Origin: a virus
Taxonomy: Duplodnaviria; Heunggongvirae; Uroviricota; Caudoviricetes
Reading direction: 5' to 3' (one strand)
IMG/VR virus record: IMGVR_UViG_2548876944_000018
DNA: 12,453 nucleotides
Under the pieces are notes generated by a model. That model saw only the letters and a list, made by a program, of their open reading frames with translations. It had not been told where the DNA came from and ran no database searches. Shown in pieces: positions 1,750-12,453 of this stretch (position 1 is its first letter; every line of letters begins with the position of its first letter). Position numbers and translations under genes: made by a program.

Positions 1750-2520
1750 ATGCAAAAATTCCATTACGTTTATCACACCACTATTAAATCTAATCGCTCT
1801 GGTAAAATCTATCATTACGTCGGAAAAAGAACAACCACAAATCTAGACGATGGATATGTGGGATCGGGTAAAGTTATTAAAATGATGAAGCGTAAAAATA
1901 AAGAATCAGAAACCCCGATATATGAATTTGAAGTTGTTCGTTCAAAATTGTTTGATACTGCCGAGGAAGCGTTTGAATGTGAAATCCTGTTAGTGGAGGC
2001 AGCACGCGAAAAATGGGGGCGTGGTGTATGTCTTAATATAGCTCCTGGTGGTGTCGGTGGTTTTGATGGTGGTGAAAATCATCCTTTTTACGGAAGAAAA
2101 CATACACCGGAATCTAGAGCTAAAATGTCGGCATCTCGAATGGGTGAAAAGAACCATCGCTATGGTAAACCTAGTGCAATGAGAGGCAAAAAAGTAACAA
2201 ACCCAGAAATATTAGCTAAATTATCGGCTGCTACTCGTGGAGAGAATAACCCCCGTTATGGTAAACCTGTATCAGAAGAAACACGCGAAAAGATTAGAAA
2301 AGCACATCTAGGGCGCAAGCGACCAGAAAGCTCTACCAAGAAATATACACATTCTATACGTATTGCTAAAGGTCAAGGCTGTTGGCAGCATTACGATGAA
2401 ATCCGGCGCGTGTGGATTGAAAACGGTAAACCCGGCGCGGTTAAATTGAGTCAAATCATGGTTAGCTTAGGCCATCCAAAATACAACCTTCGTAGAATGT
2501 ACGAAGACTTCAAGAAATAA
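1750..2520 (+). CDS. GIY-YIG family homing endonuclease with three NUMOD3 repeats (Seg / I-TevI-like), 256 aa
   Basis: N-terminal HYVY...YHYVGKRT (GIY-YIG-like module), FECEIL (compare FECSIL in I-TevI as recalled) and LNIAPGG (conserved Asn region). Three NUMOD3-type repeats follow: NHPFYGRKHTPESRAKMS, NHRYGKPSAMRGKK and NNPRYGKPVSEETREKIRKAH, then a basic C-terminal tail. The gene is visibly more AT-rich than the flanking tail genes. Confidence 0.85.
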   Translation: MQKFHYVYHTTIKSNRSGKIYHYVGKRTTTNLDDGYVGSGKVIKMMKRKNKESETPIYEFEVVRSKLFDTAEEAFECEILLVEAAREKWGRGVCLNIAPGGVGGFDGGENHPFYGRKHTPESRAKMSASRMGEKNHRYGKPSAMRGKKVTNPEILAKLSAATRGENNPRYGKPVSEETREKIRKAHLGRKRPESSTKKYTHSIRIAKGQGCWQHYDEIRRVWIENGKPGAVKLSQIMVSLGHPKYNLRRMYEDFKK

Positions 2521-2566: not shown

Positions 2567-2986
2567 ATGCTAAAAACTAGGCTTATCACCGATTACATCA
2601 ATTCTTTAATAGGTCAGGAGTTCGTTCAAGGCGAGAATGATTGCAATATAATTGCATGTAAGATCATCGATATTCTCGCTGGTACTGACCTATATAATTC
2701 TCTTTATAAAAAATATTCAACGAAAGAAGAAGGCTTGAAAATCTGCAAAGAATTAAGCGGATACACAAATATCCTTCAACCAATTAAGAAACATTTCAAA
2801 CTAGTCACTGATGATTTACAGGACGGCGACTTACTGGTCACAGCCCACAAATTAGGAAACCGCAAATATTATTCCGTAGTTCCTCATTATTCCGGTTATG
2901 GCCTCGTTGAAGAAGATGGTATCTGGATGACCATTCCTGTTTCAGACATTGACTATGAACAAGTTTATAGATTCGGGGGTGAATAA
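2567..2986 (+). CDS. Tail assembly/tail tip protein (gpK position), possibly NlpC/P60-like, about 139 aa
   Basis: The track ORF starts at 2552, but the ATG at 2567 has GGAGGT 7 nt upstream. Its stop overlaps the J-like ATG (TAATG at 2984-2988). It contains a DC dipeptide (GENDCNII) and downstream His residues, loosely reminiscent of a Cys-His peptidase. The call is mostly positional. Confidence 0.5.
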   Translation: MLKTRLITDYINSLIGQEFVQGENDCNIIACKIIDILAGTDLYNSLYKKYSTKEEGLKICKELSGYTNILQPIKKHFKLVTDDLQDGDLLVTAHKLGNRKYYSVVPHYSGYGLVEEDGIWMTIPVSDIDYEQVYRFGGE

Positions 2987-5900
2987 TGGGATTTGAAATA
3001 TTAGTAGGCGCGGTTATTGCTGGTGCGTCTGCTGGGATGGCTGCTGCTGCAACATTTTCTGTTATGACCGCAGTCGCTATCGGTATGGCTGCTGGTGCAA
3101 TGACCTTGATCGCTTCCACTGTAGGCGCACCAAAAACACCGAAAGTACAAAGCTCAGATAATGCGGTGACACTAGGAACATCAAACGATCCGAAAGCGGT
3201 GATACCAGTCGTTTTCGGTACTACCCGCACTGGCACAAACTGTGTTTACAAAGCAGTTTCTAAGCAAGAAAACAATAAGCTAGTGCAAATCTTCTCTGTA
3301 GCCGAGGGTGAAATCGACCATTACAAAGCACTCTTTATTGATAATAAAAACGTTCTCATTAGCCAGAATATGACAATTCGTGATGGCATTCTCGATAAAG
3401 GAAACATTAAAGACGAATACCGCAAAGTGTTAGAAGTCGAGTTTCGCACTGGTAAAAATCCTAACACTGCATTGGATCTGGCTAAACATCATTTGGGCGC
3501 AGATTGGGATGATCGGTATCAGGGTAACGGCATTGCGACCATGTGTATTGTGTTACGTCGTGACGATAAATCTTTGGCTGCTGGTGTTGATATCCTTCAA
3601 CCAAATAGCCAAGTGGCAGTCGATGTTATGGGCTTAAAAATCCGTAACCTCGAAACCAATGCTATTGAGGCAAGCACTAACGGCGTGGACCAGATTTTCC
3701 ATTATCTGACAAATACAAAGTATGGTCTTAGTGTACCGATTGAAAATATTAACGTTGATTCATTCCTGAAAGTGCGTAAACAAGTACGCCAGATGGACCT
3801 ACATTCCAACGGTGCATGTGATCCGAACGCCAGCTTTAAAGAGAACTTGACCAGTCTTATGCAGACTTTCGGCGGGGTAATGTTCGAATCCTTCGGAAGA
3901 ATTACCCTGAAACTGGATGCTCCTGATATTGTTAAGCATACCTTCAATGAAGACAATATCATGATGGGTAAGGTATCACTGAAAACAGGTGGCACTAACG
4001 GTTATTTCAATACCATTAACGCGATGTATCAAGAACCATCAATCGACTATTCAGAGCAAATGCTACGTTATCCGGCTGATGCTGAAAACGATGCTACTAT
4101 TCGTCAAGATGGTCGAATTATCGCTAAAGATATTGAATATCGTTTTGTTAAGTCTAAAGCCCAGATTGATAAACTAGCGAGTGTAGAACGAAATAAATCT
4201 CGTATCACTCAGGTTATCAGCTTTATGACTACTGACGCATTCACTGCCGAAGTGTGGGATGTTATTAGCGTTACCTATGATGAATTGAAACTGAATAATT
4301 CACTTTGGCGCATTACTGCAATTGATCGTTCTATTGATTCTGGTATTGCTGGGATGATGACTATCACCGCTACAGAATATAATTCTCAGGTTTATACTGA
4401 CCTGAACTATGCGGCGACTCCAGACAATAGACCTACTGGTTTACCGGATTCAATGACAGTACAGAAGCCTACTAATTTCAGAATTAAGGCAACTGGTGAG
4501 ACAATCCACGGTAAAAACGTAACTTTGACATGGGATGCACCGGAAGATTTCAACCGTTATGGTTTCCAGATTGATTATCGTGTGAGTGGATCACCTAACT
4601 GGATTAAGCTGGGACAGACTTCACAGCAAATTTTCAATATCAATGCACTGGCAAAAGATCGCTCCTACGATTACCGCGTTTGTGCTTTCGGTATTATTGC
4701 TCGTTCCGAATGGGTGGAACTGGTTAACCAGAATCCTACTGTTACCTATGAATTGCCTACGCCAGTGATCCGCATCAAAAATCAGGGTAGTTCACCTGGT
4801 ACTTTCGAAGGCAATGATCTGATTATCGAATGGGAAAATCAGCAACAATTAGATGTGATGATCAACGGTGAAGCTAACAAGTTTAGTGACCTGTTTGAAG
4901 CATACATTATCAAGGTAACTAACAAGGCTGGTAAGTCTATTCAGTACCGTACCCGCGATCCTGAATCATGGACTTATACGCTTGATATGAACCAGTTTAA
5001 CGGCCTTTCGCGTCAATTGACGGTAGAAGTATCCGTTAAGGGCTATAACAACTCAGAGAGCGCCCCAGCGCGTTTAGTGGCTATCAACCCACAACATAAG
5101 CCGATGAAAGGTTTTAGTGCGCGTGGTGGCTTTAATACTGCGTTTGTTAGCTGGGCGGATGACGTAGAACATGACTATGCAGGGTCAATCATTCAGTATG
5201 CAACCGATAACACTTTCTCCGATGCAAGGGCAGTGACTACCAATAGCGTTAGTCATACTTCCTTTGATTTGGCTGACGGTGATTATTATATCCGTGGTGC
5301 TCACTATGATATTTTCGGTATGGATGATGCTGTTTGGTCCGAACCGTATTTCATGCAAATGAAATCTACCATTAGCTGGGACGATCAGGACAAAGAAGCA
5401 CTGGAAGACCTGATCGGTTTACAAGATCGATTAGATGAAACTATCGCGGATGCTATTAAGCAAGCTGGCGCTAATGCCGATGCTAAAATTGATGCAATGC
5501 ATAAACAGATTACTACCGAGACAGGGCAGACGGTCCAAGCCTCAGCCGATACTCTCAAGAGTCTGATTGCTACCAGTGAGCAAGCCAGCGCAACTAAGAT
5601 TGATCAGGTTAAAGCTGAACTGAAAGGCGATATCACCAAAGAAGTTAGCGCATCCGCTACTACCCTGAAACAAGCAATTGCTACCAGTGAGGCAGCAAGC
5701 GCAAGTAAGATTGATCAAGTTCGGGTAGAAATGGATGGCAAGATTGCTGGTGTGAATCAGGAAGCAGATGTAAAAATCGATGCTTTGAAGGGAACCATTA
5801 ACAGCAAATATAATCTGGCAGTTAATGCAGATGGTCGCGTGGCTGGTATTCATATGAGCGCAACCAATGATCCGGCAGAACCGACAAGAATCATCTTTAC

Positions 5901-6732
5901 GGCTGATAAAATCGCGGTAGCTCCACAAGACGGATCCGAAGTTTGTCCGTTTGGCATCGAAGATAACAAAGTTTATCTTGATAATGCGATGATTCGTAAT
6001 GCTGCAATTGGCACAGCCCAGATTAGTGATGCGGCTATTACCACGGCTAAGATCGGCACAGCCCAGATTAACGGCGCTCACATCCAACACGCACAGATCG
6101 GAACGGGTCATATCATTGATGGCTCTATCGATAATGCTAAAATTGGTAACTATATCCAGTCTTATAACTGGAATGGTAACGATGGATGGTATATCGGCAA
6201 AGATGGCACTTGTCATTTTAGACACGCTAATATTCGTGGTCATTTGGTGGCTGATTCCGGCGAAATGAACAACGTAACGATTAATTCAAGTTGCCGCATT
6301 TTGGGTATGCTTGATGCTAATCAGGTGCGTGGTGACTTCGTGAAAGTGGTTGGTAGGAGTTTCCCACATCGTCAACCAAACTGGCCTGATGGTGCAATCA
6401 CTGTAAGGGTCGAAGATGATCATCCATTCGATCGCCAAATAGTGATTCCAGCGATTCATCATAACGGGTCTGTTCGTCGTGGCGAAAGTAGCGATCATTG
6501 GGATACTTGCCGACTAATCGTTAAGAAAAATGGTGGTGTTCTATATGATCGCACTGCAACTTCTGGCTGTATGTACAGTGGAGTTATTGACATGCCAGCC
6601 GGACACGGGGCAGTAACAATGACTTTTGAAGTTTACTGTAAGGGCGTTAACAACTATAACCCAAGTGCATATATCAGCGATCTAACGGTAATGGTAACTA
6701 AGAAAGCCGCTACTGGTATTTCTGTTTCTTAA
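2986..6732 (+). CDS. J: Host specificity protein J-like central tail fiber / tail tip protein, 1248 aa
   Basis: A 3.7-kb ORF at the end of the tail operon with a GGGGG Shine-Dalgarno. The middle contains fibronectin-III-like segments (for example NVTLTWDAPEDF...YDYRVCAFG). The C-terminal ~130 aa contain DDHPFDRQIV, VIDMPAG and MVTKKAATGISVS, which closely match the lambda gpJ C-terminal receptor-binding region as I recall it (DDHPFDRQIV, IVDMPAG, MVIKKQALGISVV). Confidence 0.9.
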   Translation: MGFEILVGAVIAGASAGMAAAATFSVMTAVAIGMAAGAMTLIASTVGAPKTPKVQSSDNAVTLGTSNDPKAVIPVVFGTTRTGTNCVYKAVSKQENNKLVQIFSVAEGEIDHYKALFIDNKNVLISQNMTIRDGILDKGNIKDEYRKVLEVEFRTGKNPNTALDLAKHHLGADWDDRYQGNGIATMCIVLRRDDKSLAAGVDILQPNSQVAVDVMGLKIRNLETNAIEASTNGVDQIFHYLTNTKYGLSVPIENINVDSFLKVRKQVRQMDLHSNGACDPNASFKENLTSLMQTFGGVMFESFGRITLKLDAPDIVKHTFNEDNIMMGKVSLKTGGTNGYFNTINAMYQEPSIDYSEQMLRYPADAENDATIRQDGRIIAKDIEYRFVKSKAQIDKLASVERNKSRITQVISFMTTDAFTAEVWDVISVTYDELKLNNSLWRITAIDRSIDSGIAGMMTITATEYNSQVYTDLNYAATPDNRPTGLPDSMTVQKPTNFRIKATGETIHGKNVTLTWDAPEDFNRYGFQIDYRVSGSPNWIKLGQTSQQIFNINALAKDRSYDYRVCAFGIIARSEWVELVNQNPTVTYELPTPVIRIKNQGSSPGTFEGNDLIIEWENQQQLDVMINGEANKFSDLFEAYIIKVTNKAGKSIQYRTRDPESWTYTLDMNQFNGLSRQLTVEVSVKGYNNSESAPARLVAINPQHKPMKGFSARGGFNTAFVSWADDVEHDYAGSIIQYATDNTFSDARAVTTNSVSHTSFDLADGDYYIRGAHYDIFGMDDAVWSEPYFMQMKSTISWDDQDKEALEDLIGLQDRLDETIADAIKQAGANADAKIDAMHKQITTETGQTVQASADTLKSLIATSEQASATKIDQVKAELKGDITKEVSASATTLKQAIATSEAASASKIDQVRVEMDGKIAGVNQEADVKIDALKGTINSKYNLAVNADGRVAGIHMSATNDPAEPTRIIFTADKIAVAPQDGSEVCPFGIEDNKVYLDNAMIRNAAIGTAQISDAAITTAKIGTAQINGAHIQHAQIGTGHIIDGSIDNAKIGNYIQSYNWNGNDGWYIGKDGTCHFRHANIRGHLVADSGEMNNVTINSSCRILGMLDANQVRGDFVKVVGRSFPHRQPNWPDGAITVRVEDDHPFDRQIVIPAIHHNGSVRRGESSDHWDTCRLIVKKNGGVLYDRTATSGCMYSGVIDMPAGHGAVTMTFEVYCKGVNNYNPSAYISDLTVMVTKKAATGISVS
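5539..5760 (+). repeat. Imperfect tandem duplication of about 111 bp (37 codons) inside the J-like gene
   Basis: ATTGCTACCAGTGAG occurs at 5566-5580 and 5677-5691, and AAGATTGATCA(G/A)GTT at 5596-5610 and 5707-5721, both with a 111-nt offset. The peptide units are ASADTLKSLIATSEQASATKIDQVKAELKGDITKE and VSASATTLKQAIATSEAASASKIDQVRVEMDGKIAG. Confidence 0.75.
6001..6150 (+). repeat. Ten consecutive pentapeptide repeats (A-x-I-x-x) inside the J-like gene
   Basis: Translation reads AAIGT AQISD AAITT AKIGT AQING AHIQH AQIGT GHIID GSIDN AKIGN, with Ile at a strict 5-residue period. GGCACAGCCCAGATTA is repeated at 6010-6025 and 6055-6070. Confidence 0.7.
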
Positions 6733-9273: not shown

Positions 9274-10953
9274 TTAAATTCCAAATTCTTGTAATGGACC
9301 TGGTATTTCTTCTTCTGGTTTCCAGTTCTTATCTGTCAGCATGTCTAAACATGGATGCAGAACAAGCCCGTTACTCTCCAGAATCTGCCTATCATTGATA
9401 GTCTTCAAATCAACGAAGATCCGGCCTTTCCTCGGTCCTCTTGAATTTTCTATTACAACTCTCTGGGTCTTGCCATCGATGTATTCCAGTACAAACAAGT
9501 TTTTGTACTTGTCAATCCTGCTACACCCGATCCGTTTTAGAGCTTGCTTAATCTTAAACCGGACCTTAATGCGATCCTCGTTGTAAACATCTTCTAAATC
9601 AAATTCTGCGAGCTTCTCCCAGCCTTGAGAGTCAACAGAATACATTTCCTCTTCTGCCATCTTAAGTTGATTGTAGAGTGTTTCACGCTCGCTATTGAGG
9701 GTAGTAATCTGATCGGCTAGCTCCTTCGTTGCTCCTGTCATAGCAGAAAGGGTAATCAGGTTATCAATCTTGCGTGATATTTCATCAATCTGTACTTTCA
9801 AAGCCGGAACCGGATTAGCCTTATCTTCAGCAATCCAGATTTTATCAGCCAGCAATTGCAATACAGCTTTCTCTAATTGGTCGCCGCGAAAACTCCAGTT
9901 TGTATGCACACATTCAATACGACTAGAGCGCATTGCATCGCATGAATAACGATATTGGTTAGGCCGTCTGTTTGTTCCTTTCACCTTAACCATAGCGGAA
10001 CCGCAATGTTCACATTTCAATAGACCAACACCACTAAGCAAGGGAATAGGTTTAGCTTCTTCTTTGTCTCCAAAGTTACATGCTCTAACACCAATGCTTT
10101 TCTTAAGGTGATAAAACTCAGCGTCATCTAGCACACGAGGATAATAATCCTTTAACTCATACTTAACGCCATCTACAGAGATTTCCTTGATACCAATCAA
10201 AGCGCGGGTATGGAACAACCTTTCAATCATTGCCCGTGACCAGTTTGAATGCCTCTTGTGACTTGCGGCTGGTGGTGGTGTGTATGTCGCGTTAAGGTGA
10301 TCCAGTATCTCGGCGGTTGACCGTCCATTCCTGCGTAATTCCACAACTTCCTGAACAATAGGGAAGAAGACCGGATGAGGAAGCACATAACCAGATGTGG
10401 TATCAGTCCACCACATATTCTTTCCAATTTCCTCGATTGCAACAGCCGGATTTTGTGGATTTTCTTGATGAGCTTTAATCTTAATCAGTGCGCTTGAGTT
10501 AGTACGATTGCGCTTAGTCTGGCTTTCCTCATTACCACGGATGAATAAAAGGATGGAGAACATCAGGTCCATCGGGTTAGCGGTAACAGTATCAAGCGAG
10601 TAGATCTTGTTATCCATGCCAGTAACAATGGTTATCCCCCTACGGATGATTGAAAGGAATAACTCCTGCGCACTGACAATATCGGCACGGGATAAACGGT
10701 CCAAGTTTTCGATGAATAGCCAGCTACCAACAGGAACGGATCTACCTATTGCATCAAGGAAACGAGATAGCGCCCCTGTTTTGGAGTTAGCACCCTTAAA
10801 CGCAGATACACCCAGATCCTGATAATCATTTACCAGTTCAAGGTCATACTTTACCGCAATCTCTCTAGCCATCCTGATTTGTCGTTCATAACTCGAACCA
10901 TCATTCTGACGCATAGACGAGAAGCGAATATACGAATACAGTTTAGTTTTCAT
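9274..10953 (-). CDS. Large serine recombinase (serine integrase family), about 559 aa
   Basis: N-terminal resolvase-type catalytic motif YSYIRFSSMRQ...SYERQ with the nucleophile Ser near residue 10. A Cys-rich zinc-ribbon segment (CEHCGSAM...YRYSCDAMRSSRIECVH) and a coiled-coil region (ALKVQIDEISRKIDNLITL...) follow. The track start is TTG at 10968; the ATG at 10953 is preferred. Confidence 0.9.
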   Translation of the reverse strand: MKTKLYSYIRFSSMRQNDGSSYERQIRMAREIAVKYDLELVNDYQDLGVSAFKGANSKTGALSRFLDAIGRSVPVGSWLFIENLDRLSRADIVSAQELFLSIIRRGITIVTGMDNKIYSLDTVTANPMDLMFSILLFIRGNEESQTKRNRTNSSALIKIKAHQENPQNPAVAIEEIGKNMWWTDTTSGYVLPHPVFFPIVQEVVELRRNGRSTAEILDHLNATYTPPPAASHKRHSNWSRAMIERLFHTRALIGIKEISVDGVKYELKDYYPRVLDDAEFYHLKKSIGVRACNFGDKEEAKPIPLLSGVGLLKCEHCGSAMVKVKGTNRRPNQYRYSCDAMRSSRIECVHTNWSFRGDQLEKAVLQLLADKIWIAEDKANPVPALKVQIDEISRKIDNLITLSAMTGATKELADQITTLNSERETLYNQLKMAEEEMYSVDSQGWEKLAEFDLEDVYNEDRIKVRFKIKQALKRIGCSRIDKYKNLFVLEYIDGKTQRVVIENSRGPRKGRIFVDLKTINDRQILESNGLVLHPCLDMLTDKNWKPEEEIPGPLQEFGI

Positions 10954-10960
10954 ACCATTT

Positions 10961-11002
10961 CCAAACAAAAACGCCCCTACCGCGTATTATAACGATAGGG
11001 GC
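10961..11002 (-). terminator. Rho-independent terminator immediately upstream of the recombinase gene, with TATAAT in its loop
   Basis: On the minus strand: GCCCCTA(T)CG, loop TTATAATACG, CG(G)TAGGGGC, then GTTTTTGTTTGG. The T tract ends about 8 nt before the recombinase ATG. Confidence 0.6.
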
Positions 11003-12180: not shown

Positions 12181-12453
12181 TTACTTCTTGCTGATAAACT
12201 CTTTAGCGATAAAGTTGATTACTTCTTTCAGCTTCTTGTCTGTATCGATGCACGCTGGTAATTCTTCTTTAATATCCTGCGGCAGATACACATTGCCTTT
12301 AAAGTGGAGGAAACCATCATTACCAATCATGTAGGAGAACATCCATTCACAATCGTTATCCGCTTCCCAGAACGCCACGGTCTCATCCCCAATCAAGGTA
12401 ATGTCCATGTTGCGACGCGCTGCGTAGTTGATGATTGCTTTACCGATGTTCAT
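12181..12453 (-). CDS. Hypothetical protein, 5' end at the window edge (possibly partial)
   Basis: The frame is open to the last base of the window. An ATG sits exactly at 12451-12453, but the true start may lie beyond the window. No motif was recognised. Confidence 0.55.
   Translation of the reverse strand: MNIGKAIINYAARRNMDITLIGDETVAFWEADNDCEWMFSYMIGNDGFLHFKGNVYLPQDIKEELPACIDTDKKLKEVINFIAKEFISKK

Follow-up and report, generated by a model that had tools for sequence, protein, structure and literature searches.

It is known for bacteriophage lambda that the tail fibre protein gpJ consists, in order, of hub domains, two FN3 domains, a shaft of three helices (AHS, residues 809–861), a beta-prism named the 'central straight fibre' and then the receptor-binding domain (RBD), and that binding to LamB turns part of the shaft, residues 841–861 only, into strands (PMC11101478). 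In the central fibre of the F7 pyocin, an extensive fold switch has been described, in which a coiled coil of 163 residues becomes a beta-prism of triangular form when a cell is contacted (He et al., PMC12874032). In the same study each strand of the new prism was found to follow the motif SxSxxMxxLxS, with small residues at the S positions; replacement of these by Gln abolished the killing activity of F7, the first 20–60 residues of the coiled coil did not switch, from which the concept of a 'spine' was derived, and 21 of 24 siphophage fibres were predicted to switch likewise. That paper (PMC12874032) makes no mention of repeats or duplication. We analysed a gene of this fibre type, carrying two repeat systems, in the IMG/VR virus record IMGVR_UViG_2548876944_000018 (Caudoviricetes); the whole stretch of 12,453 nucleotides (nt) is called the window hereafter. 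Its features are collected in Table 1.

The best explanation that we can offer, and to which as a whole we give somewhat better than even chances, is that both repeats are length-setting modules of a trimeric central fibre in the style of lambda gpJ (hub, FN3, helical shaft, beta fibre and RBD): a duplicated 37-aa unit in a helical shaft with a fold switch, and an array of pentapeptides forming a triple beta-helix. Our confidence is above this level for the structural assignments and below it for the switch. The protein is, in this respect, an ordinary example of a known fibre type, in which one repeat lengthens the helical shaft and the other a narrow rod below it.

Table 1. Coordinates of the features of the fibre gene in the window.
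Feature	Position (nt)	Strand	Basis and remarks
Gene of the 1248-aa lambda-gpJ-like tail tip and central fibre protein, holding both repeat systems	2986..6732	+	Open reading frame (ORF) listing, Pfam, PHROG
Alpha-helical shaft, aa 800–920, counterpart of the lambda AHS and of the F-pyocin coiled-coil shaft	5383..5745	+	AlphaFold2 (AF2), hydrophobic period, alignment
Degenerate unit U0, aa 815–851	5428..5538	+	K-I-D spacing to U1 of 37; hydrophobic positions kept; six S positions R,D,K,N,D,K
Unit U1, aa 852–888	5539..5649	+	Motif strands ASADTLKSLIA and ASATKIDQVKA; six S positions all Ala, M positions L/I, L positions L/V
Unit U2, aa 889–925	5650..5760	+	Motif strands ASATTLKQAIA and ASASKIDQVRV; S positions A,A,A,A,A,V; one L position Ala, imperfect strand
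Partial unit U3, aa 926–947, EADVKIDALKGTINSKYNLAVN, transition from helix to beta-prism	5761..5826	+	K-I-D spacing from U2 of 22
PF09327 match, upper beta fibre into the first pentapeptides	5776..6066	+	Pfam, aa 931–1027
Eleven in-register [A/G]-x-I-x-x pentapeptides, aa 1001–1055	5986..6150	+	Strict count; 12 by a looser rule with VYLDN, nt 5971–5985
Exchangeable distal-fibre cassette, types A and B	6046..6369	+	5' junction inside the pentapeptide array, 3' junction at the RBD start
Conserved cap after the array, YIQSYNWNGNDGWYIGKDG, common to distant homologues	6151..6207	+	Pattern IGN-x-IQS-x-N-[YFW]...GW-x-I-x-K-x-G
RBD	6379..6729	+	PF12421, aa 1132–1248; phmmer against PDB; Foldseek

Homology identifies the product as a lambda-gpJ-like tail tip and central fibre protein, in agreement with the 'J-like fibre' of an earlier note made from the letters of this DNA alone. 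Pfam recognises PF09327 (Phage_Tail_Tip) with 68.1 bits (cutoff 22) and PF12421, the gpJ C-terminal RBD, with 119.4 bits (cutoff 26.2), and the matches to PF13550, the N-terminal hub (19.7 bits, cutoff 23), and to fn3 (19.7 bits, cutoff 25) are both slightly below threshold. PHROG tail-fibre families span the whole length of the protein, and PHROG tail families cover aa 20–785. By phmmer against the PDB, the C-terminal ~180 aa (aa 1068–1247) are similar to the solved A8 gpJ (expect value, E, 3.6e-44) and lambda gpJ (E 2.6e-34), and a Foldseek search with the modelled protein returned 9wcb, with a target TM-score (TMt) of 0.56, and lambda gpJ (E 1e-16). The order of parts is the same as in lambda gpJ (PDB 8XCK closed, 8XCJ open), with homologous RBD and distal fibre; however, the shaft region of the window protein does not align to that of lambda by sequence, and lambda has 14 aa where the window protein has 62 aa of pentapeptides and cap. 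A8 gpJ (PDB 9WCA closed; 9WCB open with OmpC of E. coli EDL933) offers the closest solved RBD and distal fibre, at 44% identity, but aligns well over the last ~180 aa only and does not have the repeat regions in common. The T1-like and other siphophage J proteins (9L9P chain S, Shigella phage pSf-2, mEp237 and Cyrano) do share the arrangement of the repeats, that is, tandem helical units before the PF09327 core, then pentapeptides and the IGN-x-IQS cap, with a unit of ~33 aa instead of 37 and four pentapeptides by a loose count. From homology alone, the protein would be a trimer at the tip of a siphovirus tail.

The units U1 and U2 lie in tandem, in frame with the ORF, between the FN3 domains and the beta-prism, in the alpha-helical shaft. 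They are identical at 69 of 111 nt and at 22 of 37 aa; at offset 37, the best of the 30-aa windows contains 21 identities, compared to a maximum of 11 in 100 shuffles, and a repeat search found a 68-nt core with 78% identity at a spacing of 111. The 111-bp imperfect tandem duplication that had been proposed at nt 5539–5760 is thus real; this two-unit core stood, but the degenerate unit before it and the partial one after it had been missed. Tandem Repeats Finder, run with a minimum score of 30, reported neither repeat system; it missed U1 and U2 because their DNA copies have diverged. In the AF2 monomer, the shaft is predicted as one continuous helix with a predicted local distance difference test (pLDDT) score of 65–79, and confidence is low across aa 918–939. 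At the level of the monomer, the model predicts a high helical or coiled-coil propensity for the segment, as had been proposed, and the hydrophobic period of 3.7 residues equals 37/10. Moreover, phmmer matched aa 842–1017 to 9l9p_S (E 2e-11), 23gd_D, the F2-pyocin fibre 25vf_A (E 5e-6) and the SU10 short fibre 7z4b_EA. In the F2 alignment (E 5.2e-6), aa 847–1017 correspond to residues 995–1165 of 25vf_A and aa 847–935 to residues 995–1085; the coiled coil of the F2-pyocin fibre has been solved at residues 907–1084 (bioRxiv 10.64898/2026.02.24.707460). Because of this alignment to the pyocin shaft, the predicted helix and the 3.7-residue period, we consider that the 37-aa units extend the helical shaft, which measures ~120–135 aa here and ~53 aa in lambda.

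The F-type pyocin fibre shares with the window protein the SxSxxMxxLxS motif, which is followed there by a PF09327-type core and then by three A-x-I-x-x units (ALIQD GAIDN AKIGN). By contrast, its switch segment has 163 aa and that of the window protein ~75–95 aa, it has three pentapeptides instead of 11–12, it is devoid of a gpJ-type RBD, and its shaft bears side fibres; the switch was demonstrated in the pyocin, and for the window protein we infer it. U1 and U2 each contain two copies of the motif, and the four prospective strands begin at aa 852, 867, 889 and 904. We judged the motif by position-specific counts rather than by a loose regular expression: the S positions are occupied by Ala or Val in 12 of 12 cases in U1 and U2, and by a small residue in none of six in U0, and in 27 relatives from IMG/VR they vary only among A, V, T and S. 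Judged from the sequence, the Ala/Ser/Thr richness of the units is that of the small-residue positions of the fold-switch strand motif and is not generic. The motif spacing of 15 + 22 indicates that one 37-aa unit most likely represents one pair of antiparallel strands. U0, in which the hydrophobic positions are kept and the small S positions are gone, is for this reason likely the non-switching 'spine' part. The shaft was probably extended by duplicating the strand-pair unit of a coiled coil which is itself probably fold-switching. In the free virion U1 and U2 would form a trimeric coiled coil, contributing ~5.5 nm per unit; when the RBD binds its porin, they would refold onto the beta-prism below, one antiparallel strand pair per unit, and this refolding would shorten the fibre, on a rough geometric estimate by ~10 nm if U1–U3 take part, and help to open the tail tip. 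A tandem duplication would add one whole strand pair, so that the topology would be preserved.

Below the shaft, the pentapeptide array had been described as ten units from nt 6001; the array itself is confirmed, but the strict count gives 11 units from nt 5986. In 2000 shuffles the longest strict run was three in the whole protein and four in the local A/I-rich segment. The central Ile is present in 11 of 11 units and at position 2 (M,A,Q,A,K,Q,H,Q,H,S,K) neither D nor N occurs. The array alone matches positions 81–120 of the PF09327 profile, and it shows a super-period of three units, the lags of three and six units having the highest scores. In two single-chain AF2 models the array has a pLDDT of 74–96 (88–96 in one of them) and no intrachain strands or bridges at all, and is modelled as an open spiral, as one chain of an intertwined trimer would look. 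The top-ranked Foldseek neighbours of the array chain were VgrG, HylP, endoNF, the SU10 fibre and lambda gpJ, none of them significant. The triple-stranded beta-helices of the VgrG and T4 gp5C spikes and of phage HylP are trimeric intertwined rods in cell-puncturing or fibre proteins; they have ~8 residues per face, compared to five here, and no sequence similarity to the array. At the equivalent place, a 'short intertwined beta-helix' has been reported in the F7 fibre (PMC12874032). The spiral and these triple beta-helix neighbours agree with the earlier suggestion of a beta-helical fold. The array is the final stretch of the PF09327 domain in an internally expanded form, and its Ala and Ile face inward; the three chains would be intertwined in a narrow triple beta-helix, making a rigid spacer of ~5 nm between the upper prism and the distal prism with the RBD. 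A triple beta-helix spacer derived from the tail of PF09327 is probably the right model, and it fits better than the classical pentapeptide-repeat fold. As to pentapeptide repeats in tail fibres, the literature search turned up passing annotations only.

The number of repeats is nearly fixed among close relatives. The count of 37-aa units is kept in 77 of 78 (51 from E. coli and 27 from IMG/VR), one allele having one unit fewer, and in 50 of the 51 intact E. coli alleles the net length of the repeat region is unchanged; the pentapeptide count is identical in every allele counted (10 E. coli alleles and the 27 IMG/VR relatives). Each of the 27 relatives from IMG/VR possesses two units with 11 pentapeptides; the patterns used for this search favoured the two-unit form. 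The single unit of the one-unit allele resembles a fusion of the first part of U1 with the last part of U2; since its flanks have diverged, it is not a recent slip, and a 71% identical protein (P0140) has the same one-unit form. At large evolutionary distance the picture changes. Among the distant homologues, which came from an exhaustive representative search (a word-indexed search gave 21 proteins), helical units of 28–43 aa occur upstream of the PF09327 core in one to at least ten copies, from two to three in the T1-like pSf-2 to at least ten in Cyrano, and the pentapeptides range from three to 76. By a loose count there are four of these in mEp237, pSf-2, a Klebsiella phage, Cyrano and a Vequintavirus, and 12 in the myovirus DCP80, and metagenomic fibres reach 76 uninterrupted units and 153 in total. 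The J gene of Cyrano (L016) carries its tandem ~33-aa units (DISAAI..EQEAR..D.AL..QI..L..KV) before the PF09327 core, and its shaft is far longer than that of the window protein. An IS903B truncates J in E. coli PSJ-07 (L011, 2176–4172), and the remaining match starts at window position 5761, the first base past U2, which is maybe a coincidence.

The earlier note had expected repeat number to vary among relatives, and this holds for distant homologues but not for close ones. Its stronger form, in which the repeats are active hotspots for slippage or unequal exchange and copy number and host range change often among close relatives, is in our opinion quite improbable. Exact DNA identity extends over no more than 15 nt between the 111-nt units and 16 nt inside the array, the synonymous codons are scrambled (all four Ala codons and both common Ile codons are in use), and the silence of Tandem Repeats Finder and the constancy of the counts tell against it as well, as do the diverged flanks of the one-unit allele. 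Both repeats are protein-level repeats, and their DNA copies are too diverged for active slippage. As for host range, receptor specificity maps to the RBD in lambda (PMC11101478), and the allelic differences found here follow the distal cassette and the RBD instead of repeat number.

Exchange, the other half of the hotspot claim, did find support. In six alleles (L004, L005 and L007–L010) nt identity falls from >90% to ~60% from the 60-nt bin at nt 6046 to ~6345, which places a mosaic junction inside the array near nt 6046–6060, and two others (L003 and L006) switch at ~6346, at the RBD start. The ends of the megablast matches cluster accordingly at window positions 6058, 6176–6195 and 6346–6372. 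The two types of distal-fibre cassette occur with both types of RBD, all four combinations being present, and the two RBD types differ by insertions of 7 aa and 2–3 aa. As the cassette junction lies in the array, exchange uses the array as a junction, by which cassette and RBD change and repeat count remains constant. In Escherichia phage DCP80 (L012), a large lytic myovirus of 141 kb, the distal half of the 12-unit array, AKIQDGAITNAKIVNGAIDNAKIG, has the same sequence as the 'B-type' cassette found in the E. coli prophage alleles (window 6046–6150); this identity suggests an exchange of fibre modules between very different phages. The receptor-binding part of the window protein (nt 6187–6729, aa 1068–1248) is closer to A8 gpJ, solved with OmpC, than to lambda gpJ, and on this similarity the receptor may be an OmpC-type porin rather than LamB.

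Several findings weigh against the explanation favoured here, and those on the shaft concern the switch. According to He et al. (PMC12874032), the extensive switch is not seen in lambda and T5, and the RBD of the window protein is lambda-like, so the switch here may be small or absent. The loose regular expression of the motif is weakly enriched (6 matches versus a shuffle mean of 2.4, ~2.5-fold, P = 0.025) and poorly specific, matching also the Ala-rich N-terminus, and the L position is Ala in one of the four strands. The statement on lambda and T5, the weak enrichment, the plain helix of the AF2 model and the short stretch that becomes strands in lambda (PMC11101478) favour a static coiled-coil spacer, which would serve solely to space the RBD from the tail tip and would not refold at any time, its small residues being those of a low-complexity Ala-rich helix. 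Such a spacer is possible, and we think it the less likely account, because the small residues stand exactly at the S positions of U1 and U2, are absent from those of U0 and stay small across alleles, because the segment aligns to a pyocin shaft whose close homologue F7 switches, and because even lambda turns the C-terminal part of its shaft into strands. Side fibres might also dock on the extended shaft; in the F2 pyocin, three side-fibre trimers are bound in this way to the coiled-coil shaft of the homologous fibre (PMC13455828; bioRxiv 10.64898/2026.02.24.707460). We give this very little credence, as neither the window nor the prophage of E. coli strain PK8568 (L001) has a large side-fibre gene after J, and U1 and U2 have no Gly kink like that at G955 of the pyocin.

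For the array, the competing possibility is that each chain folds alone as a right-handed four-sided beta-helix, giving three short parallel helices. This is the fold of the pentapeptide-repeat proteins (the clan with PF00805 and PF13599), which have the same five-residue period, a small residue at i-2 and a hydrophobic one at i, and the Ala and Ile of the window array agree with that family core. Long arrays of the same pentapeptide in other proteins pass Pentapeptide_4 (PF13599; 69.6 bits for P0146, 38.7 for P0156), and their two-unit period with a slight four-unit component, lags 4, 8 and 12 scoring slightly above 2, 6 and 10, also fits a four-sided helix. Weak phmmer matches to designed and natural pentapeptide-repeat proteins (E 4e-4 to 0.04) point in the same direction, 12 and four units are whole numbers of four-sided coils, and the mapping of F7 residues 1119–1167 to the pentapeptides is approximate. 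Nevertheless, we find the four-sided helix improbable. The family consensus is A-[D/N]-[L/F]-x-x, whereas the window array has an Ile centre and no unit with Asp or Asn at i-1; no Pentapeptide model of Pfam matched the whole protein at E up to 0.1 or aa 985–1075 at E up to 10, and no pentapeptide-repeat protein was among the Foldseek structural neighbours of the array. Moreover, both AF2 models are confident and yet without the intrachain bridges that a self-stacking helix would have, which, coming from models, is evidence of moderate weight, and the array sits between two trimeric prisms.

The long A-x-I-x-x arrays (P0141–P0289) have a ten-residue super-period, with an identity at the variable positions of 0.33–0.37 when the lag is even and 0.07 when it is odd; even copy numbers predominate among them and some pass Pentapeptide_4. 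Their super-period was tried as a test of a three-sided versus a four-sided helix and does not discriminate.

The triple beta-helix and the duplicated strand pair can be combined in a wider proposal, which we put forward tentatively and regard as doubtful in its entirety. The A-x-I-x-x array would represent a class of triple beta-helix not described before, very narrow, having five residues on each face, widespread in phage fibres with up to 76 uninterrupted units and mislabelled by Pfam as the classical fold; separately, the shaft would evolve in quanta of one strand pair (28–43 aa), and natural alleles of one, two, three to at least ten units would tune the stroke and the stored energy of the switch that opens non-contractile tails. 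For the energy with which such tails breach the cell envelope, the pyocin work of 2026 proposes a store in the form of a metastable coiled coil. With its natural one- and two-unit alleles and a lambda-type porin-binding domain, the E. coli prophage lineage is a genetically easy system and could serve to test whether shaft length sets stroke, timing or ejection efficiency; if the reading in quanta were true, near-isogenic one- and two-unit alleles would be a natural test of the energy-storage model. The pentapeptide array, on its part, offers a simple modular change of fibre length, useful for the reach of phages or tailocins through capsules or O-antigen, and the mosaic junctions mark sites at which fibre cassettes can be swapped without breaking the fold.

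The window is an E. coli prophage, 99.9% identical over nt 5300–6732 to that of strain PK8568, in which the RefSeq name of the product is 'phage tail tip protein'. A megablast of the whole window against phage genomes found no close phage, the sole match being 42 nt long; this match (window 12328–12369, 97.6% identity) falls in a hypothetical gene of Escherichia phage vB-Eco-KMB41. The relatives at the DNA level are E. coli prophages. The prophage is ~35 kb long, and its J gene adjoins tail genes. In PK8568 it borders on a truncated hicB and ydcR, a position suggestive of integration at the hicAB locus, and a serine-type recombinase lies downstream; in the window, a large recombinase gene is found at 9274–10968 (-), near the prophage end. 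An antisense ORF of 233 aa at 5542–6243 (-) lies wholly inside J; Pfam gives no match for it, and most likely it does not represent a gene. Downstream of J, in the window and in PK8568, there are ORFs of 92, 56, 227 and 115 aa encoding hypothetical proteins and then an endolysin-like metallopeptidase. Upstream, a homing-endonuclease-like DNA-binding protein with a NUMOD3 domain is encoded at window 1750–2520 (+), its gene being inserted among the tail genes directly before J and the DUF6950 gene, according to the RefSeq annotation of PK8568.

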